NCBI GenBank assembly: GCA_028279655.1
Contig: JANQNH010000007.1
Span: 35,338 to 99,337, forward strand
Reading direction: 5' to 3'
Length of the DNA: 64,000 nt
Origin: Candidatus Nanoarchaeia archaeon
GTDB taxonomy: Archaea; Nanobdellota; Nanobdellia; Woesearchaeales; JACPBV01
Below the pieces are notes generated by a model. The model saw only the letters and a list, made by a program, of their open reading frames with translations, made no database searches and had not been told where the DNA came from. Position numbers and translations under genes: made by a program. Numbering within the stretch: position 1 is the stretch's first letter; each line of letters opens with the position of its first letter. This document shows positions 382 through 58,619 of the stretch, in pieces.

Positions 382-396
382 AACCAATAAAAACTA

Positions 397-34568: not shown

Positions 34569-35003
34569 ATGGAAAATGAAATCCTGATCCAGACAGTTTC
34601 AGAAAGATTAGAATCAATAATAGACAGATATGCTTCTAATTCAGATTATTGTAGGATAAAGAAAGGTGAGCCATGGGGATATGGTGCAGGCAAACAGATC
34701 CTATGGACATTGCCTTATGAACCTGTTGGAGCATCCTGTAGTATCTCCTTCAGATACTATGTTGAGGATAAGTTATTTGGGATAAGCGGAAAAAGGACAG
34801 AGTTCAGTAAAAGGGACCCAGAGGAAAAAAGAAAAGACATGGATGAAGCGCTTGAGGTATTGGAACAAAGAATAAGAGAGATCCCTTATGAATGGAAAAA
34901 GATATTTAAACCACGACTAGGAGGGAAAGATCCACCTAAATACATTGATGATTTACGTAAGATTGTTCAAGCACGTAAAGCTGAAATTATGCAGGAAGAC
35001 TAA
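34569..35003 (+). CDS. hypothetical protein
   Basis: 144-aa ORF, no family recognised. Confidence 0.45.
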   Translation: MENEILIQTVSERLESIIDRYASNSDYCRIKKGEPWGYGAGKQILWTLPYEPVGASCSISFRYYVEDKLFGISGKRTEFSKRDPEEKRKDMDEALEVLEQRIREIPYEWKKIFKPRLGGKDPPKYIDDLRKIVQARKAEIMQED

Positions 35004-36319
35004 TCAAAGAACTCTTTATGCAGGACCTTAACCGCCTTGTCTGCATCTTTCTTATCAACTATAAAGCTGACATTTATCTCGTAAGCTCCCTGTGATATCA
35101 CTTCTACATTTACGTTCTCTTTTCCCAATGCAGAGAATATCCTTCCTGACACCCCGGGAACATTGCTCATCCCCTCTCCTACAACACTCACTATGGATTT
35201 ATCCTTAAATATCTCTACATCAGCCACCCCTTCTAGATCCTCCTTGATCTTATCCAGATCGGCATCATCATCCACAGTAAGAGAGACACTGACCTCAGAA
35301 GTAGATACCATGTCTATGCTCTTCTTGTAATCCTCAAACACAGAGAATATCCTTGACAAAAAACCATAAGCCATAAGCATCCTGGTACTTACAATATGGA
35401 TTAGGGTAATGCCTTTCTTGCAGGCGATAGCCTTGATTATGTCCTTTGTCTTTTCAACCTTCCCAACTATAGTTGTGCCTTTATTTGAAGGTTCAAAGGA
35501 ATTAAGTACCTTGACAGCAAGGTTCTTCTTTATGGCTGGCCATATGGTTTTAGGATGCAAGACTCTTGCTCCAAAATAAGCCAGCTCAGAAGCCTCGTTA
35601 AAACTTACTTTATCGATTGTCCTGGCCTTTTTCACAACCCTGGGATCTGCAGTTAGTATCCCATTAACATCAGTCCATATCTCAGTAACATCTCCCAATG
35701 CAGCACCCAATATTGCTGCAGTATAATCACTTCCACCTCTCCCCATTGTAGTGATATTTCCAGCAGTATCCTTACCTATGAATCCAGTTACTACTGGTAT
35801 CTCCTTTACCTTTGCAAGCTCCATTGCTATCTTCTCTTCAGTATCAGGCAATGGTTCTGCCTTCCCGTAATCAGGTGTAGTTATCATACCTATATCAAAG
35901 GCATCAAAAGCCTTTGCCTTGATCCCTATCTTACTAAGATAAGCAGCAACGATCCTTACTGACATCCTTTCCCCATAACTCTGTACCTCATCCATAAGCT
36001 CAGGATTAGTAAGTTTCATCTCAAATATTTTGTCAACCACCTTATTGTAGCCTTCCAGCTGCTCGTCAACCAGCCCCCCCTCTAATCCAAGCTCCTTTAA
36101 GGTAGAATTGTGTTTTTCTCTCAATTCCTTAAGTTCCTTGCTCACATCCTCACCACTAGCAGCAGCTTTTGCAGTATCTATCAGCTTATCTGTGATTCCT
36201 TTCATAGCAGAAAGAACCACAACAGGCTTCTCGTCTAGTTTGCTCTTGATGATATCACAAACATTCTTTATCCTATCAGAATCACCTACAGAACTCCCTC
36301 CAAACTTCATAACTACCAT
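35000..36319 (-). CDS. lysC: aspartate kinase with tandem ACT domains
   Basis: VMKFGGSSV, GRGGSDYTAAILGA, TDVNGILTADPR, C-terminal ACT repeats. Confidence 0.93.
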   Translation of the reverse strand: MVVMKFGGSSVGDSDRIKNVCDIIKSKLDEKPVVVLSAMKGITDKLIDTAKAAASGEDVSKELKELREKHNSTLKELGLEGGLVDEQLEGYNKVVDKIFEMKLTNPELMDEVQSYGERMSVRIVAAYLSKIGIKAKAFDAFDIGMITTPDYGKAEPLPDTEEKIAMELAKVKEIPVVTGFIGKDTAGNITTMGRGGSDYTAAILGAALGDVTEIWTDVNGILTADPRVVKKARTIDKVSFNEASELAYFGARVLHPKTIWPAIKKNLAVKVLNSFEPSNKGTTIVGKVEKTKDIIKAIACKKGITLIHIVSTRMLMAYGFLSRIFSVFEDYKKSIDMVSTSEVSVSLTVDDDADLDKIKEDLEGVADVEIFKDKSIVSVVGEGMSNVPGVSGRIFSALGKENVNVEVISQGAYEINVSFIVDKKDADKAVKVLHKEFFD

Positions 36320-36375: not shown

Positions 36376-37932
36376 TCAGACCTTCTTAAGAAGATCGACT
36401 ACTCTCTCCTTACCTAATGTAAGGATAAAAGGTGCAAGCTTAGGCCCCCTGTCCTTATCGATAAGCACATTATAACATATCTTAAAGAAATGCTTAGGAT
36501 CCATATCGCTGCCTTTAGCAATGGTGTAGAATTCCTCATACAACAGCTTCTCCTCTGGTTTATCATGCTTCTCAAGATAGTTCAGTAGTTTGTTTAGGGC
36601 ATTTTTCTCATTAACACCAAGTTTAGCCTTGACTTCCTCCTGAACATGGAACCTCATAGCTTCCGGAGCATACTTAGATATCCAGTTAGCGGCACATTCG
36701 ACCCTTACCCTCAACCTATCAATATCTCCTTTGCCCTTAACATTATAGCTCTCCTTTATCTTGCTGAAATCGTTCTCATATATCTGCACCACATTGCATA
36801 GGTGCCTGAAGGAGGGCTGAAGAGGCATCTTGGGTTTGGGCTTTTCAACACAACTTAGCTCATAGATACGCTTCTGTTTCCTATACTCTTTATCATCAAC
36901 CTTCTCTTTCTTGTAATATATCCTCTCACACTTATCAAAATCCTCATATATCTTTATGACATCCAGATCAAACGAGATAGCAAACTCTGTTCCAGGCTTA
37001 GTACCCGCAAAAAGGTATCTGATAATCTCAGGTTCATACACCTGCAGAACATCAGGCAATGTAGTTATATTCCCCTGTGAACTTGAGAATTGGCCCCCTC
37101 CCTTGATACCAATCCAGCCAAAGCCAAAACCAAGTGCATATTCTATATCGTAGACCTCCCTAGCAAGCAACCTTGCTGTATGAAACACACCTCCTGCTGC
37201 ATAATGGTCTTTTCCTGCACTCTCAAAATCAATATCCTTATAATTCCAGAAAGCAGGAACCTGTATCCTATACTTGAATTTAGCCAGTCCTTTTTTTCTG
37301 AAATCAAATTCCTTCCATTTATCCCCAAACCCCTTATATTTCAGGACATAACCGCCAGGATACTCAATCTCAGATACCTCCTCCCTTGTATCTTCGTCAT
37401 ATATAGATACAGGGAGCCAGGAATCAGCCAGTTCTTCTTTCCTAAACCTGTTCAGAACATCCTTGATCTTATCAGTATTCTCAAGTGCTATCTTCATCTC
37501 CTCTGCCATAACACACTTTTCATACTGGACGCTGTTTCTTATTATGGTAGGACTCAGTCCGACTACAGGAAGGTACTGTTCAAAATCAGCGATATGATAC
37601 TCAGCATAGTTCTTATGCTTTGTATCAAAGATGTTTGGGACCTCTGTCAATGGTTTCCTTAATGCCCTCTTCAGCATATCCTGCTTTGGCATGTTCTTAG
37701 GGACCTTCCTGAAAACATCGTAATCATCCCAATAGTGATAATGAATACCTTTCTTTCCCTTGTCATTTATCGCCCTTGCTATAAAATCACCCATGATAAA
37801 CTCCCTAAAGTTACCGATATGCAGCGTACCTGAAGGGGTTGCACCAGTAGCTATCCCATACTCCTTCTTATCCTTTCTCTTTATTATCTTATCCGCTGTC
37901 TGGTCAGCCCAATGCATTGATTCATCCGTCAT
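36376..37932 (-). CDS. lysK: lysyl-tRNA synthetase, class I (archaeal type)
   Basis: GTLHIGNFRE (HIGH), GGGQFSSSQGN (KMSKS equivalent), 518 aa collinear with class I LysRS. Confidence 0.9.
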   Translation of the reverse strand: MTDESMHWADQTADKIIKRKDKKEYGIATGATPSGTLHIGNFREFIMGDFIARAINDKGKKGIHYHYWDDYDVFRKVPKNMPKQDMLKRALRKPLTEVPNIFDTKHKNYAEYHIADFEQYLPVVGLSPTIIRNSVQYEKCVMAEEMKIALENTDKIKDVLNRFRKEELADSWLPVSIYDEDTREEVSEIEYPGGYVLKYKGFGDKWKEFDFRKKGLAKFKYRIQVPAFWNYKDIDFESAGKDHYAAGGVFHTARLLAREVYDIEYALGFGFGWIGIKGGGQFSSSQGNITTLPDVLQVYEPEIIRYLFAGTKPGTEFAISFDLDVIKIYEDFDKCERIYYKKEKVDDKEYRKQKRIYELSCVEKPKPKMPLQPSFRHLCNVVQIYENDFSKIKESYNVKGKGDIDRLRVRVECAANWISKYAPEAMRFHVQEEVKAKLGVNEKNALNKLLNYLEKHDKPEEKLLYEEFYTIAKGSDMDPKHFFKICYNVLIDKDRGPKLAPFILTLGKERVVDLLKKV

Positions 37933-38078: not shown

Positions 38079-40067
38079 ATGACTTTAACTGACTTATTGG
38101 ACAAAGAATATGCAATTAAATTTGTTACAGGGGATAAGGGTAAGTTTGAATGGGGAACCAAACCAAGCGAATTCAAGGCTCTTGTAGATAGGGTAGGAAT
38201 GGAAGCCCTGGTCCTTGGCGGGGATCCAGGCGGAACAAATTTTGACTGGGGACTATATCTTGAAGATAAAAAAGGAAAACTTCACCTCCTGGCATACAAT
38301 AGGGTTCCTCATGGTTATGACAAGGATAAGCCAAAGGAAACTGCACTTCCTTCTTTTCTAAAGGTGATAAACACCTTCTGGGGTGTTGCCCATTTCGCTG
38401 AACAATACTATAATGAGATAGATGCAGATTTCAAACCATTGAAAACAGGAAACTCCATACCAGGAGTTATTGAGGATTATGGTACTAGGTGGGTATCTAC
38501 GAACACACCAGAGTGGCAGAATCTTGAAGATCAGGTAGGGGGAGCCAAAGAGTTCTTCTATCCACATGGTGATGAAACAGCTATAGACATCAGAGGTATG
38601 ATAACAAGCCTAACACATTCTGAAAATAAAACCCAATTATTCAGCGAATTCCGGGCTTACAATGATCTTCGGGCAAACGGTGCAAGAGAAGCCTACCACG
38701 AAGATGGACCAGCTAGAGATGCTGCTCTTTCAATAACCGAGATGATGGGCACTGGAACAAACCTGGCTGTTTACCACATTACTCCTGATGGAAAACTTGT
38801 TGGCCATAATGCAGAGGCAGGATGGGGTGCTTATTTCGGGCGTTATATAACTGAAAAAGTTGCTCTGGAAACAATGGTTAACGATAAAGATACAAAACAG
38901 TATGAAAAGGTAGAAGCGTATGCATGGGAAGAGATAAGATCAGGAAGAGGGTGTGCAGCAGCTCTCAAATTCATGGTTGATGATGAGCTAAAGAAACAAT
39001 CAGATAATGTAGAGCATATATTCAGCCTAAAACCAAAGGATCAACCAGAAGCAATATCTATTGCTGCCCTTGAGGGAGACGTGGCATGCAAAGAAGCGTT
39101 CAATTACATAGGAGACGCAACAGGCGCATTCCTTTATGGCAGAGATAAGATATTCAAAAATCCAAAGATAGTCCTAACCCAGAACATCTACACAAAGAAT
39201 CTTGATCTGATTGCGCAAGGCCTAGTGCTGGGTTATCTTGATTGCATGGAAGATGAAGAGATCAGACCACTATATGAATCATACTTCGGTGGGGCTGCCA
39301 ATGGCCCGGGAGCAGATCTAAGAGAAACGTTAAAACAATCTATTACAGAAAGGAATATGGGTGAACCAGGTGCGGGAGAAGCATTAATAAGCAAGTTCTT
39401 CAATGGAAGGATATCTATCGATCCAGGAACAAAGACCTCCTTGGAGGGAGCAGCACTCTTAGTTACAAAGCCATTATTAGAACAACAGGATAACTATGAA
39501 GAGCCTATGAATGCAAAAGGTACTGACTTCTCTTTTGTTATAGGAGAAAAAGAGATAACCCATAAGATAACATATCACACACCAGAAGATGAAGATGTCA
39601 CATTAGAAGGGAACATTGGGATTGTACCATTCCCAACAACAGAGGTAGAAGGCATAAAACAACCATTAAGCTGTTCCTATGAATCTAAGCAACCAATGAA
39701 GAACCTGATCAGATACAGAGATGTTGCTTCAATAGGAGGATTGATTAAGCTGTATGAATCAGAAACGGGTAAAGAACTTCCAGGAGAAGTAAAAACTCAA
39801 AATGCTCAGTTCATATTAAATCATCACGACGGCACTGATAATTTACGTGATGCTACAAAAAAATGGGCAAATGCTGTTGGCTATACACTAAGAGAGGTAG
39901 CAATACAGTTCAACTACAGCAGCGACAAAAGACTTGATGTTAAAATGGAAGGACTAGATATACCAGAACCTGTACAAGACATGATAAAGAAAGCATACCT
40001 CGATACTGCTTCTAACATAAAAAATGGCCTTGAGATGCATACAAAGAGCATAAGATACGCTGCATAA
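38079..40067 (+). CDS. glucokinase (GLK family, ASKHA fold)-like domain protein with about 200-aa C-terminal extension of unknown function
   Basis: LVLGGDPGGTNFDWGLY (cf. GDxGGTN), YNDLRANG, MGTGTNLAV, AEAGWGAYF, IRSGRGCAAALKFM; 662 aa. Confidence 0.5.
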   Translation: MTLTDLLDKEYAIKFVTGDKGKFEWGTKPSEFKALVDRVGMEALVLGGDPGGTNFDWGLYLEDKKGKLHLLAYNRVPHGYDKDKPKETALPSFLKVINTFWGVAHFAEQYYNEIDADFKPLKTGNSIPGVIEDYGTRWVSTNTPEWQNLEDQVGGAKEFFYPHGDETAIDIRGMITSLTHSENKTQLFSEFRAYNDLRANGAREAYHEDGPARDAALSITEMMGTGTNLAVYHITPDGKLVGHNAEAGWGAYFGRYITEKVALETMVNDKDTKQYEKVEAYAWEEIRSGRGCAAALKFMVDDELKKQSDNVEHIFSLKPKDQPEAISIAALEGDVACKEAFNYIGDATGAFLYGRDKIFKNPKIVLTQNIYTKNLDLIAQGLVLGYLDCMEDEEIRPLYESYFGGAANGPGADLRETLKQSITERNMGEPGAGEALISKFFNGRISIDPGTKTSLEGAALLVTKPLLEQQDNYEEPMNAKGTDFSFVIGEKEITHKITYHTPEDEDVTLEGNIGIVPFPTTEVEGIKQPLSCSYESKQPMKNLIRYRDVASIGGLIKLYESETGKELPGEVKTQNAQFILNHHDGTDNLRDATKKWANAVGYTLREVAIQFNYSSDKRLDVKMEGLDIPEPVQDMIKKAYLDTASNIKNGLEMHTKSIRYAA

Positions 40068-40188: not shown

Positions 40189-40716
40189 ATGTTCGATTTA
40201 ACTAAAAAGGAAAACCTTGTACTGGCCCTTATATTAGAAAAGCCAAATAAGGAGTTCTATATCAGGGGGATTGCAAAAAAACTAAAAATAAGCCCAAGCA
40301 CAGCAAAGCTCTCTGTAGACAAATTAAAGAAGCAAGGTCTGATAGTAGAAAAAACATCTCCTGTAGTCCGTATGTTCAGAGCAAACATGGAAAGCAATCT
40401 TGTCCAAGAAAGAAAGAAGATAAAGAACCTGGACATGATAAAAAGATCAGATATTTTGGATAAAATCCAAAATCCAATATCAGCCATATTATTCGGCTCT
40501 TTCGCAAAAGGAACAAATGATGAAAAAAGCGACATTGATATTTTAATAATCACAAATAATAAAAAGCCAATAAACCTACTAGACATAAAAGGGTATGAAC
40601 TGCAGATAATCCAGCTAACTCCCCTGGAATGGAAAGAAAAAGCCAAAGGAGACAAACCATTCTATCAGGAGATAATCACAACAGGAATCCCTTTGAAAGG
40701 TGAACTTCCAGTATGA
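40189..40716 (+). CDS. nucleotidyltransferase (MNT) with N-terminal winged-helix domain
   Basis: ILFGSFAKGTNDEKSDIDILIIT NTase motif; N-terminal IRGIAKKLKISPSTAKLSVDKLKKQGLI HTH. Confidence 0.75.
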   Translation: MFDLTKKENLVLALILEKPNKEFYIRGIAKKLKISPSTAKLSVDKLKKQGLIVEKTSPVVRMFRANMESNLVQERKKIKNLDMIKRSDILDKIQNPISAILFGSFAKGTNDEKSDIDILIITNNKKPINLLDIKGYELQIIQLTPLEWKEKAKGDKPFYQEIITTGIPLKGELPV

Positions 40717-41132
40717 ATATAAAAGAATGTCTAGAAAAAGGTTATCTAAAGAAAACCAAACCAGATAAAGACAAAGCCAGACAATCATTAAAAACAGCTG
40801 AGAATAAATTTGATGAAGCATTAAAATCATTTGAAGCAGAGCTTTTTGAATCAACAATTATCTTTGCATATATGGCCATGTTTCATTCTGCAAGGTCCAT
40901 GCTATTTAAAGACGGGTTTGTAGAAAGAAGCCATATAGCTGTAATAGCCTTCCTAAAAGAGAAATATGAACAAATATTAGGAAAAGAGCTTATTTACGAG
41001 TTCAACACTGTAAGGATAGCAAGGCATGATAGTTTATATGGGCTTGACATAAACTTCTCAAGCAACGAAGCAAAACATATATTAGATATAGCTAAAAAAT
41101 TTATGGATAAGATCAAATCTTCAGTCTCTTAA
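40713..41132 (+). CDS. HEPN-domain protein
   Basis: 139 aa, ...ESTIIFAYMAMFHSARSML...VRIARHDSLYG; ATGA overlap with MNT. Confidence 0.7.
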   Translation: MNIKECLEKGYLKKTKPDKDKARQSLKTAENKFDEALKSFEAELFESTIIFAYMAMFHSARSMLFKDGFVERSHIAVIAFLKEKYEQILGKELIYEFNTVRIARHDSLYGLDINFSSNEAKHILDIAKKFMDKIKSSVS

Positions 41133-41151
41133 TCCTTTCAGCAGCTTCTTT
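41111..41151. repeat. right 41-bp direct repeat (functional 3' end of aminotransferase gene, also encodes the HEPN C-terminus on the other strand)
   Basis: See the left repeat. Confidence 0.85.
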
Positions 41152-42288
41152 ACAGTCATGAACAGAAGGAACTAGTGCAAATCTGACGTATTCTTCTCCA
41201 GGATTAAGATCATCAACAGAGTTAGATATCCAGGAACCAGGTGTAGTTACAATCCCAACATCCTTATCCAGCAGCTTTTTGGCAAAATCCACACAGCCCA
41301 TTCCATCGGGAACCTTCTGCCAGATGTATATGCCTGCCTTAGGGCTGCAATCACTCAACCCTATCTGTGTAAGAGCATCAACAATGATGTCTCTTTTCTT
41401 CTTATAGGATCTCCGGAACTCCTCAACATGTTTCTCATCAAGAAGCGCAGCAGAAGCAGCATCCTGTATAAAAGTAGCTGTCCCTGAGTCTATATTTGTC
41501 TTTACCTTCTTAAAGATATCAACAACCCAGGGGTCACCCATCACCCAGCCTACCCTATAGGTAGTCATTGCACTTCTCTTGCTCAAACTCTGTATAGCAA
41601 AGACCCCTTCTCTTTCTAACTCTAATATAGAGATTGGCTTTTCATCATAATAAAGCTCTGTATAACATTCATCCGACCCAATTATTACATTGTTATCCTT
41701 TCCAAAGTCAATAACCTCTTTTAACTTCTCTTTGGAGATCATCGCACCAGTAGGGTTGTTTGGATAATTTACCCACATAATCTTAGCCTTCTTCCGAACA
41801 TCAGCAGGTACCTTATCAAGATCAGGAAGAAAACCATTTGAAGAGAGTAAAGGATAGAAATAAGGTTTTCCTTCTGCAAACAAGGTTCCTCTCTCATAAG
41901 GAGGATATCCGGGATTAGGCATTATAACATAATCTCCAGGATTCACAAAACCTTCAGGAAGGTTAAACACTGCCTCCTTTGCACCTAGGCTGCTACAGAT
42001 CTCAGTATCAACATCAAGTTCAACACCGAACCTTCCCACTACCCACTTAGCAACAGTCTCCCTAAAATCACTGGAACCTATATAAGAAGGATAGCCAGAA
42101 CTCATCTGCTTATCGATGGCCCTCTTGCAATAATTCCTAATCAATCCAGGGGTAGGCTCCTTAGGATCCCCAACACCAAAATCAATTGGCTCTATCCCCA
42201 GCTTCCTAAGCTTAGCTACCTCATTATCAACATCAGCAAACGCATAACTCCCTATAGACTTTACCCTGTCACTAGCCTCAACCTTCAT
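41113..42288 (-). CDS. class I/II aminotransferase, candidate LL-diaminopimelate aminotransferase (DapL) or DapC-like
   Basis: PLP-lysine block QSLSKRSAMTTYRVGW, NYPNNPTG; the only aminotransferase among the DAP-pathway genes here; no dapD/dapE seen in the window. Confidence 0.6.
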   Translation of the reverse strand: MKVEASDRVKSIGSYAFADVDNEVAKLRKLGIEPIDFGVGDPKEPTPGLIRNYCKRAIDKQMSSGYPSYIGSSDFRETVAKWVVGRFGVELDVDTEICSSLGAKEAVFNLPEGFVNPGDYVIMPNPGYPPYERGTLFAEGKPYFYPLLSSNGFLPDLDKVPADVRKKAKIMWVNYPNNPTGAMISKEKLKEVIDFGKDNNVIIGSDECYTELYYDEKPISILELEREGVFAIQSLSKRSAMTTYRVGWVMGDPWVVDIFKKVKTNIDSGTATFIQDAASAALLDEKHVEEFRRSYKKKRDIIVDALTQIGLSDCSPKAGIYIWQKVPDGMGCVDFAKKLLDKDVGIVTTPGSWISNSVDDLNPGEEYVRFALVPSVHDCKEAAERIKRLKI

Positions 42289-42353: not shown

Positions 42354-43340
42354 TTACTTGGCCTTGTACAGTACAATAGTGCCCAGAGGTAATTTCCTAG
42401 GATCTATCTCGCTTGCCTTATGCAGCCTTTTTCCAATCATATAGTATGTAGATGGGCTTTTCCAGTTCTTGCCAGCATGGCTATAAGGTGTCCTTTTATC
42501 GCCTTCAAGCCTCCCTATCTCATAGTCCTTAAACATCTTTGTCCTTATAAGGTATCTTCTTAAAGATTCAATCTCTTTATCCTCTCTTCGGGTATTAACC
42601 TTGATCTCATCGGTTGGGCTAAGGATTTGTTCTGGTTCTTTAGGTGATTTAGAGCCATACAGTACCTTCTCAAGCCCTGGCTCAGCAACGACCAATCTTC
42701 CTGCTCTTACATCCGGATCATAGCCAGGTCCTTCCCCTAATCCCATCTTCTTCCTTGATTTAGGAGAAGCAAGCAGCATAGCACATTTTCTGTATCTGTG
42801 GGGTTTTGGATGCCACCTATTAGGCTCTCCATAAGAGACCATAGAGTGTGTAAGGATCCTCTCATCTTTGATACCATATTTCCTCTTTAGTTTAGATAAA
42901 AGATTCCTAAGAGAACGATACTGCTCTGCTGTTATATCCTTCTTATGGGAACCCTGCATCTCTATCCCAATACTGGAATCATTAAGCTTGGTTCTTCCCT
43001 CCCACATGCTTGTTCCTGCATGATGCGCAACCTTATCATCATCAATGACCTGGTGTACACCACCCCTATCATCAATAAAGTAATGGGCACTGCCTTTTTC
43101 CTTAACATCGTATATCCCATTGAAGTTTCCTTCAGATGTATGCAATATTATCAGGTCTGTCAGATCCCTGTTCCTTCTTTTATCATTTTCAGGACTCATA
43201 AAAGACTTGTCAACATAGAGTTCTGCTTCTGAAAAAACGTATGAAGGACAAGTCAAGACAGCAATACCAACAGCTACTCTGCTGAAAAAGCCCCTACGTG
43301 TCATCTTTTCAAGACCCACTGATGGTTTTTCTTTTTTCAT
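42354..43340 (-). CDS. N-acetylmuramoyl-L-alanine amidase (Amidase_2/PGRP fold) with twin-arginine signal and C-terminal extension
   Basis: MTRRGFFSRVAVGIAVL Tat motif; LIILHTSEG, SAHYFIDDRGGVHQVI, AHHAG, NDSSIGIEMQG, ILTHSMV...RKC. Confidence 0.75.
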   Translation of the reverse strand: MKKEKPSVGLEKMTRRGFFSRVAVGIAVLTCPSYVFSEAELYVDKSFMSPENDKRRNRDLTDLIILHTSEGNFNGIYDVKEKGSAHYFIDDRGGVHQVIDDDKVAHHAGTSMWEGRTKLNDSSIGIEMQGSHKKDITAEQYRSLRNLLSKLKRKYGIKDERILTHSMVSYGEPNRWHPKPHRYRKCAMLLASPKSRKKMGLGEGPGYDPDVRAGRLVVAEPGLEKVLYGSKSPKEPEQILSPTDEIKVNTRREDKEIESLRRYLIRTKMFKDYEIGRLEGDKRTPYSHAGKNWKSPSTYYMIGKRLHKASEIDPRKLPLGTIVLYKAK

Positions 43341-43377
43341 CTAACAGTATAATATAGTTTTCTAAAAAAGTTCACAA

Positions 43378-43809
43378 CTAGCTGAGATAACTAGTATCAC
43401 CTGCATCTATCTTAGTGACATTTACCTCATCATCAGATACTGAATAAGGATAAGGTATCAGCCATTTAAGCCTCAATTTATGGTTAAATAATCCAACCAA
43501 TCTGCGGCTTAATAGTTGTTCAGGATCATCAACACCTGCACTATCAAGGAAGTCGTTCAGTGAATCCTTATCAAAAAAGGTGAGTTCTTTGTATGTTTTC
43601 CTACCATCTGAGCTAGGCACTATTCTCTCCAATCCAAGTTTGGTCTCACCTTTAGAGCCAAATAACTGTACATTATCCACCCTGACAGCCTGAACCTTAT
43701 ATTTGCCATTAGCTCTAGCAAGAACCTGGTCCCTCATAGCTATCTCATTACGCCAGAAACCAAGCCCCATATCATACATTGCATATGCTCGTAAACGATC
43801 TGTTCTCAT
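43378..43809 (-). CDS. hypothetical protein (operon member E)
   Basis: 143-aa ORF, no family recognised; 37 nt upstream of the amidase gene. Confidence 0.5.
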   Translation of the reverse strand: MRTDRLRAYAMYDMGLGFWRNEIAMRDQVLARANGKYKVQAVRVDNVQLFGSKGETKLGLERIVPSSDGRKTYKELTFFDKDSLNDFLDSAGVDDPEQLLSRRLVGLFNHKLRLKWLIPYPYSVSDDEVNVTKIDAGDTSYLS

Positions 43810-43822
43810 TTCAACCCCCTAA

Positions 43823-44278
43823 TCAGTCACACCTCTTACAATCACATCCAGGCAAAGGCTTATAGAACTCTCCTTTACAGTCTCGACTCTGATAATCATG
43901 AAGGTGTCTTTGGTATCCCCTCATGCTTCCATAAGGGGCAATCTCCCTTTCATCGCACTCCATATTTGCCATCATAAGCTGGTACTCATGATGCCTTCGA
44001 TTATGCTCCAGGTCATCTTTGTTCAATACCCTCTTTACTCTTGGATACCTATATTTTTTATATTCCCCAAGATGGAAATCACTAATTCGATCTAAAAAAG
44101 AACCTATCCTGCTAAGTTCAGAATCTAGAGATCCTGAATCCACCGGCCTAGAATCAGCAATCCTTGAATCTACAGAGCTTGCCCTCCTGCCAATCTTAAC
44201 ATCCCTAAGTTTAGATATATATGGCCTTGCGATGATTACAGCCAATGCTCCGTATACGATTGCTTCTCTAAAGTTCAT
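43823..44278 (-). CDS. hypothetical N-terminally anchored protein with Ser/Asp repeats and C-terminal Cys cluster (operon member D)
   Basis: ATG at 44278 preceded by GGAGG; one TM (AIVYGALAVIIA), VDSRIADSRPVDSGSLDSELS, CKGEFYKPLPGCDCKRCD. Confidence 0.5.
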   Translation of the reverse strand: MNFREAIVYGALAVIIARPYISKLRDVKIGRRASSVDSRIADSRPVDSGSLDSELSRIGSFLDRISDFHLGEYKKYRYPRVKRVLNKDDLEHNRRHHEYQLMMANMECDEREIAPYGSMRGYQRHLHDYQSRDCKGEFYKPLPGCDCKRCD

Positions 44279-44290
44279 TTGATCCTCCAA

Positions 44291-44602
44291 CTAACACTCT
44301 TCTGGACCAGACTGCGCTATGTTGAGAGCTTCATCTAATCCATGATAAAACAACCTTGCATAAGTCATGAACTTATCATAGTTTGGATGTGACTCGTTCT
44401 TCCCAGTAAGCACCATATATTCCTCATCAGCAGACATCATATCCTCTATTCGTTCAATAACGCCTCTTTTCATATAGACTATCTCCTTGGATGAGAAATA
44501 ATCAGGCAATAATCCTTTCCCGAAAAGGAAAAGATTCTCTATCTTATCGCTATTCTTGATAAACTTATTCTCCAAAGATTGTATTCTTCCTTCTGTATTC
44601 AT
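44291..44602 (-). CDS. hypothetical soluble protein (operon member C)
   Basis: 103 aa from the ATG at 44602, which overlaps the upstream stop (ATGA). Confidence 0.5.
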   Translation of the reverse strand: MNTEGRIQSLENKFIKNSDKIENLFLFGKGLLPDYFSSKEIVYMKRGVIERIEDMMSADEEYMVLTGKNESHPNYDKFMTYARLFYHGLDEALNIAQSGPEEC

Positions 44603-45141
44603 TTTTTCTTTCCTCCATAATCCTCTGAAGGCCCTGGTTTTCCTGCAAATAACCCTACAACAGAACTTCCGATATTTGTTCCCCACCTAATGGCTCCACC
44701 AACCAATCCACCATAAAGGATAGTGTACATTAAAGGTGCCATCTCTCCGTCTGAGTAGCATTCGGCAGTTGCCTTTAGATTATCAATTGTTGTAGCAACA
44801 TAATCTATGGATTGAGCAGCTGTCTGTTCATCCAAGGCAGCTCCTGCCTTGCATGCTGCTGCAATGAGCCCTAGATAAGCAAATGTTTGAACAGATCCTC
44901 TAAGGAATTTAGGCCACTTCCCATCAATAGCCTTTCCCGCCATATATGATGCAACTAATGCTCCCGAAGTAGCTGCAATGTCAGGAAGCTTAGAGCCTTC
45001 GCCAAGTATATTCTCAAGCCTCCCATTATCTAGCGTATCAAATCCTCCATTGTATAACCTGCCCAATAGAGGACCCATCGCTCCGTACAATGCATATCTA
45101 AGTTCATGCTTCGCATTCCTAAGACCAGATCTGATTCCCAT
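44599..45141 (-). CDS. hypothetical Gly/Ala-rich hydrophobic protein (operon member B)
   Basis: 180 aa with glycine-zipper-like stretches (LYGGLVGGAIRWGTNIGSSVVGLFAG). Confidence 0.5.
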   Translation of the reverse strand: MGIRSGLRNAKHELRYALYGAMGPLLGRLYNGGFDTLDNGRLENILGEGSKLPDIAATSGALVASYMAGKAIDGKWPKFLRGSVQTFAYLGLIAAACKAGAALDEQTAAQSIDYVATTIDNLKATAECYSDGEMAPLMYTILYGGLVGGAIRWGTNIGSSVVGLFAGKPGPSEDYGGKKK

Positions 45142-45143
45142 TC

Positions 45144-45428
45144 TTACTCTTGCCCTCTATATTTTATGCCATACCCTCTTGCAGGACTTGTCCTGATAGT
45201 CTCTTCGTACTTAGGGTTTGAGTTTATTACCTCACTCTGAGTATTTGGATCATCACTATTTGTAGTGACAGAGCCATACTCAATCTCGGCAAGTGTCAAC
45301 CTCATTCCTCTCTTGGTTGCTTTTGAGCATCCTCCAGCTGCTAAAACTATAGGGACAAGACCGACTATAGCTGCATCTCTTACAATCGCCCCTAATCCTT
45401 TCTTTTGTGCCATTGGTTTGTTTTGCAT
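45144..45428 (-). CDS. hypothetical lipoprotein-like protein (operon member A)
   Basis: 94 aa, signal with LAAGGC lipobox; GGGAGG SD upstream. Confidence 0.5.
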   Translation of the reverse strand: MQNKPMAQKKGLGAIVRDAAIVGLVPIVLAAGGCSKATKRGMRLTLAEIEYGSVTTNSDDPNTQSEVINSNPKYEETIRTSPARGYGIKYRGQE

Positions 45429-45527
45429 TTTCTGCCTCCCAAGTTTTCAGTTTTCAAAGTAAACTTGTATCAGCAAGAAAAAGTAGAAACAGCATTAATT
45501 TTCACTGACATAGGGAAAGAAATAGGC

Positions 45528-45541
45528 ATGACATATGTCAT
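45528..45541. promoter_or_regulatory. perfect palindrome ATGACATATGTCAT (operator candidate), copy 1
   Basis: Identical to 47499-47512; about 100 nt upstream of operon member A. Confidence 0.55.
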
Positions 45542-45596
45542 TGGTAGTTGTACAGAAAGACAGAGCAGAAGCTAGACCATTAATAAAGCTAAAGAA

Positions 45597-46805
45597 CTAA
45601 CAAACACCACAGGTATTTGTGACAAGTATCTTTACTGGTCCCTCATCATTCTTTATAACAAGAGGCTCTGTAATTACAGCCCTATCCTTGAGGTAATGAC
45701 GACGTATTCCAGGAACATTACGGTGAGTTCCTAGTACTTCAAGTCCATCTACTCCTTTTACAGCATCCATCAATGCAGCAAGAGAAGCACAACCTGTCTC
45801 TGAAGTTAACACATCCTTATGTTCGTTTTCTATAACCTGCTGATAAAGATCATATGCCCATCTAATTTCCTTATCAGAAACTCCCTTAAAATTATTCACC
45901 CTTCCATGTTTAAGTTTAAGGTGATATGCTGCAGCGGCAACATCCACGTGCTCATGCCCAAACATAGGTGTATCTAATTTATGGGCTAAGCTTTTATCTG
46001 CATCCTCCAGGGACATAGGATTTGCATAACTGGTTACACCCAACAACTGTGCACATTTCCCAGAGATCCTTTTCATTATACCTTGTATACCTGAAAAGAA
46101 CTCTCCTATTCCAACAGGAGCTAAAAATAGGTTATAGTCTGTAAAACCCTTAACGATAGCGTCCATATAAGGATAGTAGTATGGGTTTGGAAGATTATAG
46201 TTACTGACATTTGTAACATCAAGTCCCCTCTCATAACCGTTTTCTTCAACCAGATCTACCAACATAGAATAATCCCTAGCACCTTTATACCTTGCTATCT
46301 GAGGAAATACACTATCATCGCCTCTTATCAGGTCCTTCCAAAAAGTCTGTAACGTTTCTGGGTTAAACCAGATATTGGGCAGAGCTATAGAGACACTTGG
46401 GTGCCCATTCTCACCGTCTATGATATGGATAAGCTCATTTGAACCCATCTTGCTCTGTTCCATAAAGTTAACTACCTGGACATTAGAATATTTTTCAGAG
46501 GCCTTCTCAAAGGCCTTTTTTGCACTGCCAGAAGTGATAAGTAAAGCAGCACCGCCACCATTAGCAGCCATAAACTCCATAGCCTGCTCTGCTTTCGGTC
46601 CCTTGTGGCTTCTGTAAGGAGATGTACTAAGATCAAATATGTCGATCTCTACTCTCCTTCCAACCCTCTCGCTTATGATATCGCTCAGCTCTTTAGAATG
46701 GATAATCCTCGGTTTATCATCTATGCCTTTCCATATTTCAGGCCTCCATAGCATATACTCTAATAGACGGTCCTGTGTCAGATCAAGAACTGCCTCAGAA
46801 ACCAT
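45597..46805 (-). CDS. divergent PLP-dependent (fold type II, Trp-synthase-beta-like) enzyme candidate
   Basis: STSPYRSHKGPKA (cf. SFKDRG lysine loop), LLITSGSAKKA, SETGCASLAAL; C-terminal NTCGVC; start abuts regulator stop. Confidence 0.4.
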   Translation of the reverse strand: MVSEAVLDLTQDRLLEYMLWRPEIWKGIDDKPRIIHSKELSDIISERVGRRVEIDIFDLSTSPYRSHKGPKAEQAMEFMAANGGGAALLITSGSAKKAFEKASEKYSNVQVVNFMEQSKMGSNELIHIIDGENGHPSVSIALPNIWFNPETLQTFWKDLIRGDDSVFPQIARYKGARDYSMLVDLVEENGYERGLDVTNVSNYNLPNPYYYPYMDAIVKGFTDYNLFLAPVGIGEFFSGIQGIMKRISGKCAQLLGVTSYANPMSLEDADKSLAHKLDTPMFGHEHVDVAAAAYHLKLKHGRVNNFKGVSDKEIRWAYDLYQQVIENEHKDVLTSETGCASLAALMDAVKGVDGLEVLGTHRNVPGIRRHYLKDRAVITEPLVIKNDEGPVKILVTNTCGVC

Positions 46806-47486
46806 CTAAACAACCCCCTTATCAAAAAGATCGTTAACAAGATTAGGGATAATCTTAGCCTCTGCCTTTCTTAGGTTCTCCTGAAACGTCCTCCTCTTCA
46901 TACCCACCAAGGCAGAGATCTCATCAAGAGATACCTTCCTAGGCCATTCATAGAAATTATTCGAAACAGCAATCTGCAGTGCTTTTGCCTGCTTATCAGT
47001 AAGCTTAAACAGATGGTCTTTGGGGCTTAGTCTTCCTATCTCAAAGACCTTTACCTCTCCGATCTCGTCCAACTCTTCAATTAGCCTGACAACCTTCTGG
47101 GGATCTTCTGTGATTATGTCATAGACCTCAAAGCCCTCTTTCTGCGTAACAGGGGAGGTGTATAGGCTGTTGTTCTTTAGTACAGTCTCATAGCTGGAGT
47201 CCTTTGCTATCCACTCTGTCTTGACTAGAGCATTTTCCTCATAAACAGATATAACCTTTATTACTTTGATCATCTCATACTTTTCAAGAGACTTGATAAA
47301 TTCATCAAATACCTTCCTGTCAGAAAAACCAATATCCCATGTAGCACAAAGCCTTACTCCTTCTTTACAATTCTCAACATTAATCGGGCCTTTCTCCTTC
47401 ATCACGATATTAGGATACTCCAAAGTACATAGACTACCCCAGCACCCTTTATGCCTTACTCCTATTTTTGCCTTTCTAAGTTTCAT
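46806..47486 (-). CDS. HTH_10 (Bat-type, COG3413-like) DNA-binding regulator
   Basis: C-terminal LTDKQAKALQIAVSNNFYEWPRKVSLDEISALVGMKRRTFQENLRKAEAKI. Confidence 0.75.
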   Translation of the reverse strand: MKLRKAKIGVRHKGCWGSLCTLEYPNIVMKEKGPINVENCKEGVRLCATWDIGFSDRKVFDEFIKSLEKYEMIKVIKVISVYEENALVKTEWIAKDSSYETVLKNNSLYTSPVTQKEGFEVYDIITEDPQKVVRLIEELDEIGEVKVFEIGRLSPKDHLFKLTDKQAKALQIAVSNNFYEWPRKVSLDEISALVGMKRRTFQENLRKAEAKIIPNLVNDLFDKGVV

Positions 47487-47498
47487 TACTAGAAAGAG

Positions 47499-47512
47499 AT
47501 GACATATGTCAT
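47499..47512. promoter_or_regulatory. perfect palindrome ATGACATATGTCAT (operator candidate), copy 2, overlapping TATA/TSS of the regulator gene
   Basis: Minus strand reads CTTTAAATATGACATATGTCAT-12 nt-ATG. Confidence 0.6.
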
Positions 47513-47554
47513 ATTTAAAGTTTACGATTTTAGCTACTATTAAGTAACACTAAG

Positions 47555-51306: not shown

Positions 51307-51984
51307 ATGAAGATACTTAAACTTTTTAAAAAACCAAATGTAGGGCCATATAATGCATTTAGCATTGTAAAGAACGAGAAAGGGGATTTTGATGATTTTC
51401 ACAAGAGACTCCTAAAAGGAAGCAATATAGTCCTCATAACAGGGAAGAGGGGATCTGGAAAAACAGCATTAGGCATGAAGTTCTTAGAGCTTTTCAGAAA
51501 GTTATCCAAGAGAAAGGTTTTTGCCATGGGTTTTGAATCAGCAAAGCTTCCTTTCAGGATAAAAAAGGCAGATGATATAGGGGAGATATCCAATAACTCT
51601 GTCGTTCTTATAGATGAAGGAGCCATCACCTTTAGCTCCAGAGATTCTATGAAATCAGCCAATAAGTTGCTTGGCAAGCTGATGTCCATAGCAAGGCATA
51701 AGAACCTCAGCCTGCTGCTTATTGCACAGAATTCTGCTATGATTGACCTTAATGTGTTAAGGCTGGCTGATACGATAATTTTAAAGGAGCCGTCTTTACT
51801 TCAGGCACAGTTTGAAAGAAAAGCGATAAAGGACATGTACGAAAAAGCAAGTGTTCATTTTAACGATATAAAAGACAAAAAATCTCATTTCTATGTGATG
51901 GATGATGAGTTCGAAGGATTGTTGAGGTACTCTCTTCCATCTTTCTGGAGTGAAAGCATAAGCAAGAGCTTTAGGAACAGTTGA
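51307..51984 (+). CDS. KaiC/RecA-superfamily P-loop ATPase (COG0467-like), orphan
   Basis: Walker A ITGKRGSGKT, Walker B VVLIDEGA; 225 aa. Confidence 0.5.
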   Translation: MKILKLFKKPNVGPYNAFSIVKNEKGDFDDFHKRLLKGSNIVLITGKRGSGKTALGMKFLELFRKLSKRKVFAMGFESAKLPFRIKKADDIGEISNNSVVLIDEGAITFSSRDSMKSANKLLGKLMSIARHKNLSLLLIAQNSAMIDLNVLRLADTIILKEPSLLQAQFERKAIKDMYEKASVHFNDIKDKKSHFYVMDDEFEGLLRYSLPSFWSESISKSFRNS

Positions 51985-52004: not shown

Positions 52005-53267
52005 TCAAACCTTAAACTTACCTAGTTTCTTAAAATCCAGAGTAGCAAAATAATCATCGACCTTTTCAGAACGTCTTATCTCAACAACCGATCCATCCTC
52101 CCTCATCAAGAGCTCTGCTGAGCGCAGCTTACCGTTATAATTAAAGCCCATAGCATGACCATGTGCACCTGTATCATGAATTACGACAATGTCCCCTACC
52201 TCAACCTCTGGAAGAATACGATCTATTGCAAACTTATCGTTGTTCTCGCATAATGAACCAGTAACATCATACATATGTGTTGGTTTTTCGTTTTCTTTAC
52301 CTAGAACAGTAATGTGGTGGTATGCCCCATAGACTGCAGGCCTCATCAAATTAGCCATCGATGCGTCTAACCCAACATAATCTTTGTAGATATGCTTCAT
52401 ATGTATAACTCTTGCAACCAAATAACCATACGGACCAGCCATATTTCTTCCATATTCAGTAAAAATCTTAAGGGGTGGAAGGCCATTTGCAGCAATAATC
52501 TCATCATAAAGCTTTTTTACCTCTGCAGCCACATAATCAATATCCACCGGTTTGTCAGTCGGCTTATAAGGTATCCCAACTCCGCCACCAAAATTAACAA
52601 ACTCTATCCTAATACCCAATTTTTCATTTACCTCTACAACTAACTCAAACAACATCTTTGCAGTTTGAACAAAAGAGGAGGGGTCTAGTTCATTAGAAAC
52701 AACCATCGTATGTAGCCCAAATCTCTTAACGCCTTTCTCTTTCATCAACTTATAACCCTCGAATAACTGCTCTTTGGTAAAACCATACTTAGCTTCCTTA
52801 GGATCACCAATAAACCTGCTTCCTTTTCTTTCAGGACCAGGATTATATCTAAAGCAGATCAGTTCAGGTATTCCTGCGGTTTTCTCTAACATCTCAATAT
52901 GGCTTATATCATCTAGATTGATTATGGCTCCAAGCTCCTTAGCTTTTGCAAACTCCTCTGCAGGTGTGTCATTAGAGCTGAACATTATATTCTCCCCAGC
53001 AATCCCAACCTTCTCTGCAAGCAACAGTTCAGGAAGAGAGCTACAGTCTAATCCAAACCCTTCATCCTTCATGATCTTTAGGATAAATGGATTAGGCAAG
53101 CACTTTACGGCAAAGAACTCTTTAAACTCAAAATCTTTAAATGCCTTTTTCAGTCTAACAGCATTCTCCCTTATCCCCTTCTCATCATATATATGGAAAG
53201 GAGTTTTATGTTTATCCATAATCCCTGATATCTTCTTCTTTGTAAAAGGTAGTTTCTTAACCATCAT
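52005..53267 (-). CDS. lysA: diaminopimelate decarboxylase
   Basis: Fold-III PLP decarboxylase blocks (FFAVKCLPN, FGGGVGIPY, EYGRNMAGP, CENNDKF, HDTGAHGHAM). Confidence 0.88.
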   Translation of the reverse strand: MMVKKLPFTKKKISGIMDKHKTPFHIYDEKGIRENAVRLKKAFKDFEFKEFFAVKCLPNPFILKIMKDEGFGLDCSSLPELLLAEKVGIAGENIMFSSNDTPAEEFAKAKELGAIINLDDISHIEMLEKTAGIPELICFRYNPGPERKGSRFIGDPKEAKYGFTKEQLFEGYKLMKEKGVKRFGLHTMVVSNELDPSSFVQTAKMLFELVVEVNEKLGIRIEFVNFGGGVGIPYKPTDKPVDIDYVAAEVKKLYDEIIAANGLPPLKIFTEYGRNMAGPYGYLVARVIHMKHIYKDYVGLDASMANLMRPAVYGAYHHITVLGKENEKPTHMYDVTGSLCENNDKFAIDRILPEVEVGDIVVIHDTGAHGHAMGFNYNGKLRSAELLMREDGSVVEIRRSEKVDDYFATLDFKKLGKFKV

Positions 53268-53315: not shown

Positions 53316-54194
53316 CTAAATGATCCCCATCTGCCCTAAGACCTCTCTTAGCCTCTCCTTGCTCTCAGGCCTTAACTCGCACATCGGAAGCCTATATGCC
53401 TCTTCGCACATCCCTTTCATTGCAAGAGCGCATTTTATTGGTATGGGGTTGGTTTCTATAAACTCAACATCAAATAGGGGTTCCAGCTCGCTGTTCATCT
53501 TCTCCGCTTCCGCAAAATTCCCATCCAACGCAGCCTTAACCATTGCCGTCATCCTATCAGGAACCAGATTAGAAGCAACCGAGATAACACCATTACCTCC
53601 TGCTTTGATAAGCTCCAAAGTTATATTATCATCTCCAGAAAGCACAGAAAAGCCATCAGGTCTCTGTGCTATAACATCCTTCATCTGATCTATATCTCCA
53701 GAGGCCTCCTTTACTGCAACAATATTGGAGCAGTCCTTTACCAATCTCATCAGTGTAGAGGTCTCAACATTAACACCGGTTCTTCCCTTAATGTTATAGA
53801 CGACTATAGGTATTTTCACAGAATCAGCAATAGCCTTGAAATGCCTGTACAACCCTTCCTGTGTAGGTTTATTGTAATAGGGGTTTACAACAAGACAGGC
53901 TGTAACGCCTACAGACTCTGCATGTTTTGTAAGCCTTATAGCCTCTGCAGTTGAATTAGAACCCGTACCAGCAATAACCGGAACACGGCCATTGACATGC
54001 TGAACAGTCAATTCAATAACCTTGTCGTGCTCATCATGGCTCAGTGTTGGGCTCTCCCCGGTCGTCCCACATGGAACAATCCCAGAGATACCCTTTTCAA
54101 TATTGAAGTCTATGAGCTTCTTCAAACATTCTTCACTCACACTTCCATCTGCTTTAAATGGTGTAATTATTGCCGTATAAACGCCTTTAAACAT
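53316..54194 (-). CDS. dapA: 4-hydroxy-tetrahydrodipicolinate synthase
   Basis: AIITPF, CGTTGESPTL, YNKP, VAVKEASGD; ATG at 54194 with GGAGGGTGA SD. Confidence 0.93.
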   Translation of the reverse strand: MFKGVYTAIITPFKADGSVSEECLKKLIDFNIEKGISGIVPCGTTGESPTLSHDEHDKVIELTVQHVNGRVPVIAGTGSNSTAEAIRLTKHAESVGVTACLVVNPYYNKPTQEGLYRHFKAIADSVKIPIVVYNIKGRTGVNVETSTLMRLVKDCSNIVAVKEASGDIDQMKDVIAQRPDGFSVLSGDDNITLELIKAGGNGVISVASNLVPDRMTAMVKAALDGNFAEAEKMNSELEPLFDVEFIETNPIPIKCALAMKGMCEEAYRLPMCELRPESKERLREVLGQMGII

Positions 54195-54211
54195 TTCGAT
54201 CACCCTCCAAT

Positions 54212-58518: not shown

Positions 58519-58554
58519 CGGGCCCACGGGGATTCGAACCCCAGACCTATTGCT

Positions 58555-58568
58555 ATCTCCTAACTCAG
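58555..58568 (-). other. tRNA intron 2 (14 nt, canonical position 37/38)
   Basis: BHB: central helix CTCT/GGAG flanked by bulges TAC and ATA, next to the anticodon stem; cuts after the 2nd bulge nt. Confidence 0.7.
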
Positions 58569-58577
58569 TAAGAGGCA

Positions 58578-58599: not shown

Positions 58600-58619
58600 A
58601 TCGCTCTAACCAGGCTGAG

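Follow-up and report, generated by a model that had tools for sequence, protein, structure and literature searches.

Here we describe a small regulatory module in a 64,000-nucleotide stretch of the genome of Candidatus Nanoarchaeia archaeon (GenBank assembly GCA_028279655.1, contig JANQNH010000007.1, positions 35,338 to 99,337), hereafter the window. Eight genes, all on the minus strand, follow one another in the order of a transcription factor of the helix-turn-helix family HTH_10, a 402-aa protein with a pyridoxal 5'-phosphate (PLP) enzyme-like fold, a cassette of five small proteins and an amidase, with gaps of 0, 168, 2, -4, 12, 13 and 37 nt. Comparison with related loci suggests that the locus is probably a self-contained local regulon of a Woesearchaeota-like archaeon of the DPANN group (Diapherotrites, Parvarchaeota, Aenigmarchaeota, Nanoarchaeota, Nanohaloarchaeota), controlled through a palindromic dyad by a dual-function regulator, with the amidase gene lying outside it. 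Its invariant core would comprise the HTH_10 factor, the divergent fold-type-II PLP protein and two types of operator built on the dyad TGACATATGTCA.

To our knowledge very little is understood of how DPANN archaea regulate their genes, HTH_10 regulators have been poorly studied beyond the haloarchaea, and we know of no description of TGACATATGTCA as a motif. As far as a limited set of searches shows, the module is undescribed, with no match in profile libraries, the PDB or the literature. Its parts are of known kinds: a transcription factor with its operator, a protein of the PALP superfamily, and small orphan putative envelope proteins.

Results

A palindrome shared by two types of promoter

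The perfect 14-bp palindrome ATGACATATGTCAT occurs in the window as exact copies at 45528-45541 and 47499-47512, with no third match even when two mismatches are allowed. A sequence-only reading of the same DNA had placed one copy between a TATA-like box and the ATG of the regulator gene and the other about 100 nt before the next operon, and both placements were confirmed. No other perfect palindrome of 12 or 14 bp occurs more than once in the 64 kb, and a recurring 14-bp palindrome appeared in none of 300 dinucleotide-preserving shuffles of the window.

The contigs that carry relatives of the 402-aa and 143-aa proteins supplied eleven further non-redundant loci for comparison: L002, L003, L074, L075, L076 (duplicate L077), L078, L079, L080, L081, L082 (duplicate L083) and L084. 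The core 12-mer TGACATATGTCA has nine exact and two one-mismatch sites in the 52.6 kb of 11 module loci and is kept in nine independent related loci; no site with at most one mismatch was present in 233 kb from 70 control DPANN loci. There are 13 dyad sites in all, each at a fixed distance from a TATA-like box. Between the window and L003, an operator block of about 57 nt is about 90% identical, and the cassette proteins are less conserved than this block (about 40% identity for the lipoprotein, 56% for the 143-aa protein). These comparisons support the earlier proposal of a single local regulon, marked by the two palindromes and linked to the HTH_10 gene, because in every related locus the same motif occurs at these two kinds of promoter; the motif proved neither common at random positions, with none in the control DNA, nor absent from orthologous loci.

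The regulator and its promoter

The transcription factor (226 aa; 46806-47486, minus strand) matches HTH_10 (PF04967) over residues 162-213 at 56.3 bits (cut-off 23.1, E 2.9e-15); its N-terminal domain, about 150 aa long, is conserved. A sequence search of the PDB gave no significant match to it, and neither the regulator nor the DNA pattern of TATA box plus palindrome matched any viral sequence. The dyad is found at every locus that carries an HTH_10 regulator. The regulators of the window and L076 are 64% identical, with the same recognition-helix region GMKRRTFQENLRKAEAK, whereas the PLP-like proteins of these two loci are only 32% identical. Residues 13-20 of the regulator read KGCWGSLC (CxxxxC), identical in all five full-length regulators seen; from its sequence this motif could be a metal- or redox-sensing site.

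The operator of this gene, O-reg (47499-47512), is a copy of ATGACATATGTCAT directly after the TATA-like box CTTTAAAT of the regulator/PLP operon (47513-47520, minus strand, read 47520-47513; assigned by eye). It sits between that box and the regulator ATG (47486), ending 12 nt short of the ATG, and the ATG lies about 30 nt downstream of the centre of the box. A TATA box abuts the dyad at the regulator operon in five of five loci, the head of the operon reading (G)TTTATAAA directly followed by TGACATATGTCA in L076, L080, L081 and L082, and CTTTAAATA directly followed by TGACATATGTCA in the window. Since the start codon at these operons comes only 6-27 nt past the 14-mer, the regulator/PLP transcript is likely to be leaderless or to have a very short leader.

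The cassette promoter

The other copy of ATGACATATGTCAT is site 1 of the cassette operator, O-cas (45528-45541); it ends 100 nt ahead of the ATG (45428) of the first cassette gene and is centred about 37 bp upstream of the TATA-like box of the cassette. At a distance of 23 bp from it lies site 2, the degenerate dyad TTTCCCTATGTCAG (consensus TTGCCAAATGTCAG; 45505-45518, minus strand), followed by TGAAAATTAATG, the putative transcription factor B recognition element (BRE) and weak TATA box of the cassette promoter (45493-45504, minus strand).

This architecture recurs at all eight cassette promoters, where the site 1 palindrome is always present and site 2 keeps the same spacing and position. 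The shared order is the palindrome, 9 nt resembling the consensus CCTCTATTTC, the dyad TTGCCAAATGTCAG, and a purine-rich stretch with a weak A/T box (TGAAAAWTT…). Then come a TTTTCT region, which is conserved, a Shine-Dalgarno motif of GGAGG-like sequence and the ATG. The dyads fall at about -64 and -41, and site 2 ends 0-3 nt before an A-rich stretch. The cassette TATA boxes are weak (TTAATGCT, TTTGTTAA, TATTAGTA), whereas the regulator operon has a consensus box.

A divergent PLP-fold protein tied to the regulator

The gene of the 402-aa protein (45597-46805, minus strand) starts where the regulator stop codon ends. Its SHKGPKA and SETGCASLAAL blocks, seen in the translation, had prompted the suggestion of an aberrant PLP fold, which was borne out by the PALP match of a homologue, an alignment of 15 sequences, and an AlphaFold2 (AF2) model searched with Foldseek. 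The protein itself has no match to PALP (PF00291) or to any other Pfam family, the NCBIfam matches of the family are weak and confined to threonine ammonia-lyase and threonine synthase models, and a sequence search of the PDB with the 402-aa profile found nothing significant. Its membership in PALP is accordingly one of transitive homology, as the homologue P0011 passes PF00291 at 47.9 bits (cut-off 35) over residues 11-292, nearly the whole domain. Seven of the 15 family members match PALP, P0011 above the gathering score and six others below threshold; in P0016, residues 11-88 align with profile positions 10-90, the N-terminal block.

His67 and Lys68 are invariant in 15 of 15 sequences, within an [ST]HKGxKA block, and Lys68 is the presumed Schiff-base lysine. 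The same alignment holds Gly93 (TSGN loop), Gln110, Thr198-Asn199, Gly232 and Glu235 (GxGE loop) and Thr398 (C-terminal NTGG) invariant. The window member reads TSGS, with Ser for Asn, where most members keep TSGN. Prediction with AF2 on a two-sequence alignment gave a predicted local distance difference test score (pLDDT) of 34.8, and the model became confident only after a profile search had supplied 15 sequences (pLDDT 85.6, predicted TM-score 0.84). The best Foldseek matches of this model are TdcB, threonine synthase, cystathionine beta-synthase, O-ureido-serine synthase, TrpB and serine racemase (E about 1e-10, TM-score about 0.5, identity 10-17%); 417 PDB chains match at E <= 0.001, and all of the 50 best are fold-type-II enzymes. 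By its modelled structure and alignment, the 402-aa protein is a fold-type-II PLP protein that has diverged strongly from the rest of the superfamily, and a putative enzyme. The family is rare: a HMMER profile search of 1.84 billion cluster representatives returned 18 proteins at E <= 0.001, and a word-seeded search of a 5.8-billion-protein collection found one relative. Scans of GTDB genomes, JGI metagenomes and IMG/VR yielded no locus for the 402-aa or the 143-aa family.

The PLP-like gene adjoins the HTH_10 gene, or lies one small gene away from it, in 11 of 11 loci with visible flank, and the two genes abut or overlap where they are adjacent. This count includes the duplicate locus L077, and also L074, L075, L078 and L079, whose contigs start inside the C-terminus of the regulator (…RTFQENLRKAEAKL…); L003, with no PLP gene on its contig, and L084, with 31 nt of flank, could not be scored. 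The regulator gene itself was seen at six loci, in full in the window, L076, L080, L081 and L082 and truncated at its 5' end in L002.

At L080 the palindrome-controlled regulator operon is headed by a gene (301-1113, plus strand) for a 270-aa protein with a JAB/MPN-like HxHx7Sx2D motif and a Prok-JAB match (E 4e-4) below threshold. Sulfur-carrier pathways, for example CysO/CysM/Mec, pair JAB proteases with PALP enzymes. A pathway of this kind was not adopted as an explanation, because no ubiquitin-like carrier was found and the JAB-like gene is confined to L080. In the window, a 9-bp stem-loop followed by a T-rich stretch (45600-45620, minus strand) overlaps the last codons and the stop of the 402-aa gene; it could mark where the regulator/PLP transcript ends, although the scan from which it comes was at chance level overall.

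Variable cassettes of small proteins

In the window, the first cassette gene encodes a small putative lipoprotein of 94 aa (45144-45428, minus strand) with the lipobox-like LAAGGC and a GGGAGG Shine-Dalgarno-like motif upstream. It is followed, on the same strand, by a 180-aa Ala/Gly-rich protein (44599-45141), a positional analogue of a 171-185-aa family of other loci; an acidic soluble protein of 103 aa with a C-terminal SHPNYDKF (44291-44602); a window-specific 151-aa protein whose N-terminus is hydrophobic and which carries (V/A/L)DS repeats and ends in a Cx10CxCxxC tail (43823-44278); and a conserved 143-aa protein (43378-43809). The sequence-only reading had described the packing correctly, with the regulator stop abutting the 402-aa start and gaps of 2, -4, 12, 13 and 37 nt, and all the motifs that it quoted (SHKGPKA, SETGCASLAAL, LAAGGC, the (V/A/L)DS repeats, the Cx10CxCxxC tail and TRRGFF) are in the translations.

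That the small proteins belong to no known family also held: Pfam, NCBIfam, PHROGs and PADLOC gave no match to any of the five, and PDB sequence searches with the 180-aa and 143-aa families gave nothing significant, a match to CsoS1A (E 0.005) most likely being compositional. PADLOC returned no match for any of the eight proteins, and a defence system was rejected as a reading of the locus; Rfam gave no match there. No 19-residue window with a mean Kyte-Doolittle score of at least 1.6 was present in the 180-, 103-, 151- or 143-aa proteins. A phage lysis cassette was considered and rejected: only the amidase matches PHROGs, no viral contigs matched, and the host is an archaeon.

Clear homologues of the 94-, 103- and 143-aa proteins were found in L002 or L003, and the 151-aa protein has no relative in any fetched locus. 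The 94-aa lipoprotein has a homologue in L003 (E 8e-17), and its counterparts at six further loci show, by pattern reading, a lipobox-like SGC, GGC or QGC after a hydrophobic stretch. A lipobox-like small protein takes the first position in seven of eight cassettes, the first gene in L078 being that of a 171-aa protein; this lipobox pattern is the one feature that suggests an envelope location for cassette proteins. The 103-aa protein has a homologue in L002 (E 3e-17) and shares its SHPNYDKF-type motif with small open reading frames (ORFs) beside the regulator/PLP genes of five other loci (hhalign probability 77%). The 143-aa protein is 56-58% identical to copies in L002 and L003 (E about 1e-50), and its family has three members, including that of the window, in the 5.8-billion-protein collection; no match linked it to the last ORF of L081. 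A proposed homology of the 180-aa protein with the 171-185-aa family was withdrawn (hhalign probability 0.2%, BLASTP E 0.023, empirical p about 0.013).

Cassette content varies from locus to locus. It amounts to the small lipobox protein alone in L074, L075 and L079, to the 171-aa Ala/Gly-rich protein alone in L078, and to the lipoprotein with a 176-181-aa protein in L076 and L082. In L003 it comprises the lipoprotein, a 185-aa and a 145-aa protein, the contig ending 16 nt past the gene of the last; in L002 a lipoprotein cut by the contig end and proteins of 185, 97 and 155 aa; and in the window the lipoprotein and the 180-, 103-, 151- and 143-aa proteins. The window cassette is co-oriented with the regulator operon, while elsewhere the cassette converges on that operon, and this difference in orientation indicates that cassette and promoter were inverted as a unit. 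Site-specific inversion at the palindromes was rejected as its cause, since the cassette inverts together with its promoter and not between the palindromes.

An amidase gene beside the module

The last gene encodes a 328-aa homologue of N-acetylmuramoyl-L-alanine amidases (42354-43340, minus strand; alternative start at Met13, 43304). As with the HTH_10 assignment at 56.3 bits, the Amidase_2 identity proposed earlier stood up in Pfam, at 79.8 bits (PF01510, cut-off 26), and the score against the AmpD equivalog model was 84.8 bits, below the cut-off of 143. Its closest solved relatives are AmpDh2 and AmpD. His67, Glu127 and His165 are conserved, and the Asp that is the third zinc ligand of AmpDh2 aligns with Arg175; judged from the alignment, Cys186/His181, invariant in the subfamily, may replace the missing ligand. 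By eye, the N-terminus shows a twin-arginine-like TRRGFF motif and a hydrophobic stretch running to VFS-EA. There are 41 non-self relatives, at most 54% identical, and those with an organism name come from Kiritimatiellia, Lentisphaerae and Acidobacteria; the window protein has one C-terminal repeat, and the aligned homologues are mostly about 390-440 aa long, most with two or three.

The amidase is absent from all other module loci fetched. In the 37-nt gap ahead of it (43341-43377, minus strand), an oligo-T run (43369-43364) comes directly after the stop codon of the 143-aa gene and is followed by the TATA-like CTATATTATA (43356-43347), whose position fits a start at Met13 (MTRRGFF…). No Shine-Dalgarno-like motif precedes the amidase gene, while the 94-, 151- and 143-aa genes each have one. 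From its sequence this gap is probably a terminator and the amidase's own promoter. A sigma-70 promoter and terminator scan performed at chance level, sigma-70 models being unsuited to an archaeon. The amidase is probably a separately acquired bacterial-type gene and a neighbour outside the conserved module, horizontal transfer being suggested by the bacterial origin of its named relatives. Acquired genes of this type have been described before in archaea, Woesearchaeota among them (PMC12352652, PMC9723730).

Several claims of the sequence-only reading did not survive this comparison. The six-gene order is not a conserved unit, as the amidase and the 151-aa protein are missing from every other locus, and outside the window no amidase accompanies the small ORFs. 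What had been called a six-gene operon is a presumed unit in which an oligo-T run and a TATA-like box stand ahead of the amidase gene. The suggested bacteria-directed or envelope-remodelling function depends on the amidase, a window-specific neighbour that is absent elsewhere, has bacterial relatives and probably has its own promoter, with envelope targeting read from the lipobox pattern only.

Discussion

The two promoters differ in where the dyad stands relative to the TATA box, and this geometry suggests how the regulon may work. Regulators of archaea act as repressors when bound downstream of the TATA box, where MDR1, Phr and TrmBL1 block recruitment of RNA polymerase, and as activators when bound upstream of the BRE and TATA box, as in the case of Ptr2, TFB-RF1 and TrmBL1 in its activator mode (PMC4158304). 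At its own promoter, the regulator would meet a single dyad directly downstream of a consensus TATA box and over the expected start site. Binding there would block polymerase recruitment, and negative autoregulation is expected because the site lies between TATA box and start site, where archaeal regulators act in this way. At the second promoter, the dyad and its weaker neighbour, spaced by 23 bp, stand just upstream of a purine-rich BRE-like stretch and a weak TATA box; this promoter would drive a variable cassette of a 60-100-aa lipobox protein and an Ala/Gly-rich protein of about 180 aa, joined in the window lineage by the 103-, 151- and 143-aa proteins. Here the regulator most likely activates a weak promoter by recruiting the TATA-binding protein and transcription factor B, a reading that, by analogy, is favoured over cooperative repression. 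The PLP protein, with its Schiff-base lysine kept, would be either a regulated enzyme that makes or removes an effector or a sensing partner of the regulator.

Several points weigh against this picture. Binding of the HTH_10 regulator to TGACATATGTCA is suggested by their co-occurrence alone. Whether the cassette promoter is activated or repressed is guessed from its geometry and the quality of its TATA box, and if site 2 extended into the true BRE it could repress. The window PLP protein, with Ser for the Asn of its TSGN loop, may not be a normal catalyst. For the 180-aa protein, homology with the 171-185-aa family has only marginal support, and the variable content of the cassettes weakens any single functional reading. 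The related loci are mostly short contigs (1.5-3.4 kb), several of them from the same sequencing projects, and TATA boxes and start sites were assigned by eye. The regulon may also have further members elsewhere in the genome, as the motif scan covered only the 64 kb of the window.

The most serious alternative, possible although less likely than the model above, makes the regulator a pure repressor of both promoters, so that an effector, possibly a substrate or product of the PLP enzyme, releases enzyme operon and cassette together. Most characterised archaeal transcription factors do repress (PMC4158304), site 2 lies 0-3 nt from an A-rich stretch and so might extend into the true BRE, and the 23-bp spacing of the two dyads would lend itself to cooperative binding. 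Yet a weak cassette TATA box beside a consensus box at the regulator is typical of activator-dependent promoters, and both dyads lie entirely upstream of the A/T-rich box, the position of archaeal activators (PMC4158304). The place of the PLP-fold protein can likewise be read differently, as the ligand-sensing partner of the regulator in a complex and not a metabolic enzyme. We regard this as doubtful: the genes are linked in all 11 scorable loci and abut or overlap where adjacent, the PLP family evolves fast beside a highly conserved regulator, and the substrate loop of the window member is altered (TSGS for TSGN), but the family keeps its Schiff-base lysine and several positions of the active site unchanged, as a working enzyme would, and the regulator's own conserved N-terminal domain of about 150 aa could sense a ligand.

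It is rather unlikely that the six genes from lipoprotein to amidase form one operon for a bacteria-directed or envelope-remodelling weapon, in which an amidase exported by twin-arginine translocation (Tat) would be the effector and the small proteins its accessories. This explanation draws on the shared strand and tight spacing, on the TRRGFF motif of the amidase, on the finding that archaeal peptidoglycan hydrolases derived from bacteria can kill bacteria, some of them carrying Tat signals (PMC12352652), and on Woesearchaeota metagenome-assembled genomes (MAGs) that encode peptidoglycan-degrading and pore-forming toxin genes (PMC9723730). Set against it are the absence of the amidase from every other cassette locus, the oligo-T run and TATA-like box that split it from the 143-aa gene, its want of a Shine-Dalgarno-like motif and the missing third zinc ligand at the aligned position, which Cys186/His181 may replace. 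We think it highly improbable that the palindrome is a chance repeat, or a non-regulatory site without relation to the HTH_10 protein, for example a recombination point or the end of a mobile element: although the window cassette is inverted relative to the regulator operon when compared with other loci, and the module occurs in different chromosomal neighbourhoods, 0 of 300 shuffles produced any recurring 14-bp palindrome, the 13 sites keep fixed distances from TATA-like boxes, none occurs in 233 kb of control DPANN DNA, and there is no integrase or transposase nearby and no viral match.

The proposed dyad-controlled regulon resembles archaeal dual-function regulation as known from TrmBL1/Tgr, the repressors MDR1 and Phr and the activators Ptr2 and TFB-RF1, in that the operator lies downstream of TATA at one promoter and upstream of BRE/TATA at another, and the regulator gene carries its own operator; the DNA-binding family differs, that of the window being HTH_10 (PF04967) and not TrmB or Lrp. 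The 402-aa protein shares with the PALP enzymes TdcB, threonine synthase, cystathionine beta-synthase and TrpB the predicted fold, the [ST]-H-K lysine, a TSGN-like loop, a Gly-rich loop and NTGG, but departs from them in its 10-17% identity, a TM-score of about 0.5, the lack of a PF00291 match, an invariant Glu in the phosphate loop (GxGE) and TSGS. In Bacillus, the PALP-fold enzyme CysK acts as co-regulator of the repressor CymR, and by analogy the module may likewise tie a PALP-fold protein to a DNA-binding regulator, here through strict genetic linkage; regulator family, organisms and target genes differ, and the tie is known here from gene linkage alone. With AmpDh2/AmpD amidases and archaeal peptidoglycan hydrolases (PMC12352652) the window amidase shares the Amidase_2 domain, His67/His165/Glu127, a signal-peptide-like N-terminus and bacterial named relatives; it differs in having one C-terminal repeat, against two or three in the aligned bacterial homologues, and in its third zinc ligand, which is off the canonical position.

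The locus offers a transcription factor, the exact sequence of an operator, promoters of two architectures and a defined small target set, and is tractable in vitro without culturing. The rare PLP-fold family, always tied to a regulator, represents a new branch of a well-studied superfamily and offers a starting point towards its substrate, and setting the amidase apart from the module keeps the small ORFs from being misannotated as accessory factors of a peptidoglycan hydrolase. More speculatively, and with little confidence, the module could be a DPANN-specific device in which the PLP protein and the HTH_10 factor work jointly: the enzyme would make or sense a small amino-acid-derived signal, perhaps from a host or prey cell, and the pair would then switch on fast-evolving small surface proteins for cell contact. 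If so, the lipoprotein and the Ala/Gly-rich protein, as a membrane-active component, would mediate contact, and in the window lineage a bacterial amidase would have been recruited alongside.

Genomic surroundings

Beside the related modules stand genes that have no counterpart in the window. A small protein with zinc-ribbon and AbrB/MazE-like features, about 58% identical between L076 (12709-13056), L078 (2569-2991) and L082 (3588-3983), is encoded on the divergent side, just past the cassette promoter, and is followed in L076 and L082 by CDC48 and HSP20-like genes. In L075 and L076 a 96-102-aa 'MEDLP…' protein is divergent from the palindrome.

The window itself carries amino-acid biosynthesis genes around the module (35000-36319, 41113-42288, 52005-53267 and 53316-54203), among them those for an aspartate kinase, a class-I/II aminotransferase, a diaminopimelate/ornithine-type decarboxylase and a protein of the DapA family (dihydrodipicolinate synthase). 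Glutamate dehydrogenase, a glutamate-synthase-like gene and a class-I lysyl-tRNA synthetase (36376-37932) are also near; the best relatives of the synthetase are in Woesearchaeota/Nanoarchaeota MAGs, the top one 64% identical, which assigns the window to a DPANN archaeon. The neighbourhood looks like one of lysine and glutamate metabolism, and DPANN genomes usually have less biosynthesis than this. Rfam recognises a tRNA of 111 nt at 58519-58629 (minus strand, 43.1 bits), probably intron-containing, where ARAGORN reports no tRNA in the window. A 662-aa ORF (38079-40067, plus strand) beside the lysyl-tRNA synthetase gene has no Pfam match. Between the glutamate-synthase-like and decarboxylase genes lies the gene for a 225-aa nSTAND3/KaiC-like P-loop ATPase (51307-51984, plus strand), and at 40189-41132 (plus strand) an MNT nucleotidyltransferase with an N-terminal MarR-like helix-turn-helix overlaps a HEPN gene, a pair typical of HEPN-MNT toxin-antitoxin-like modules.

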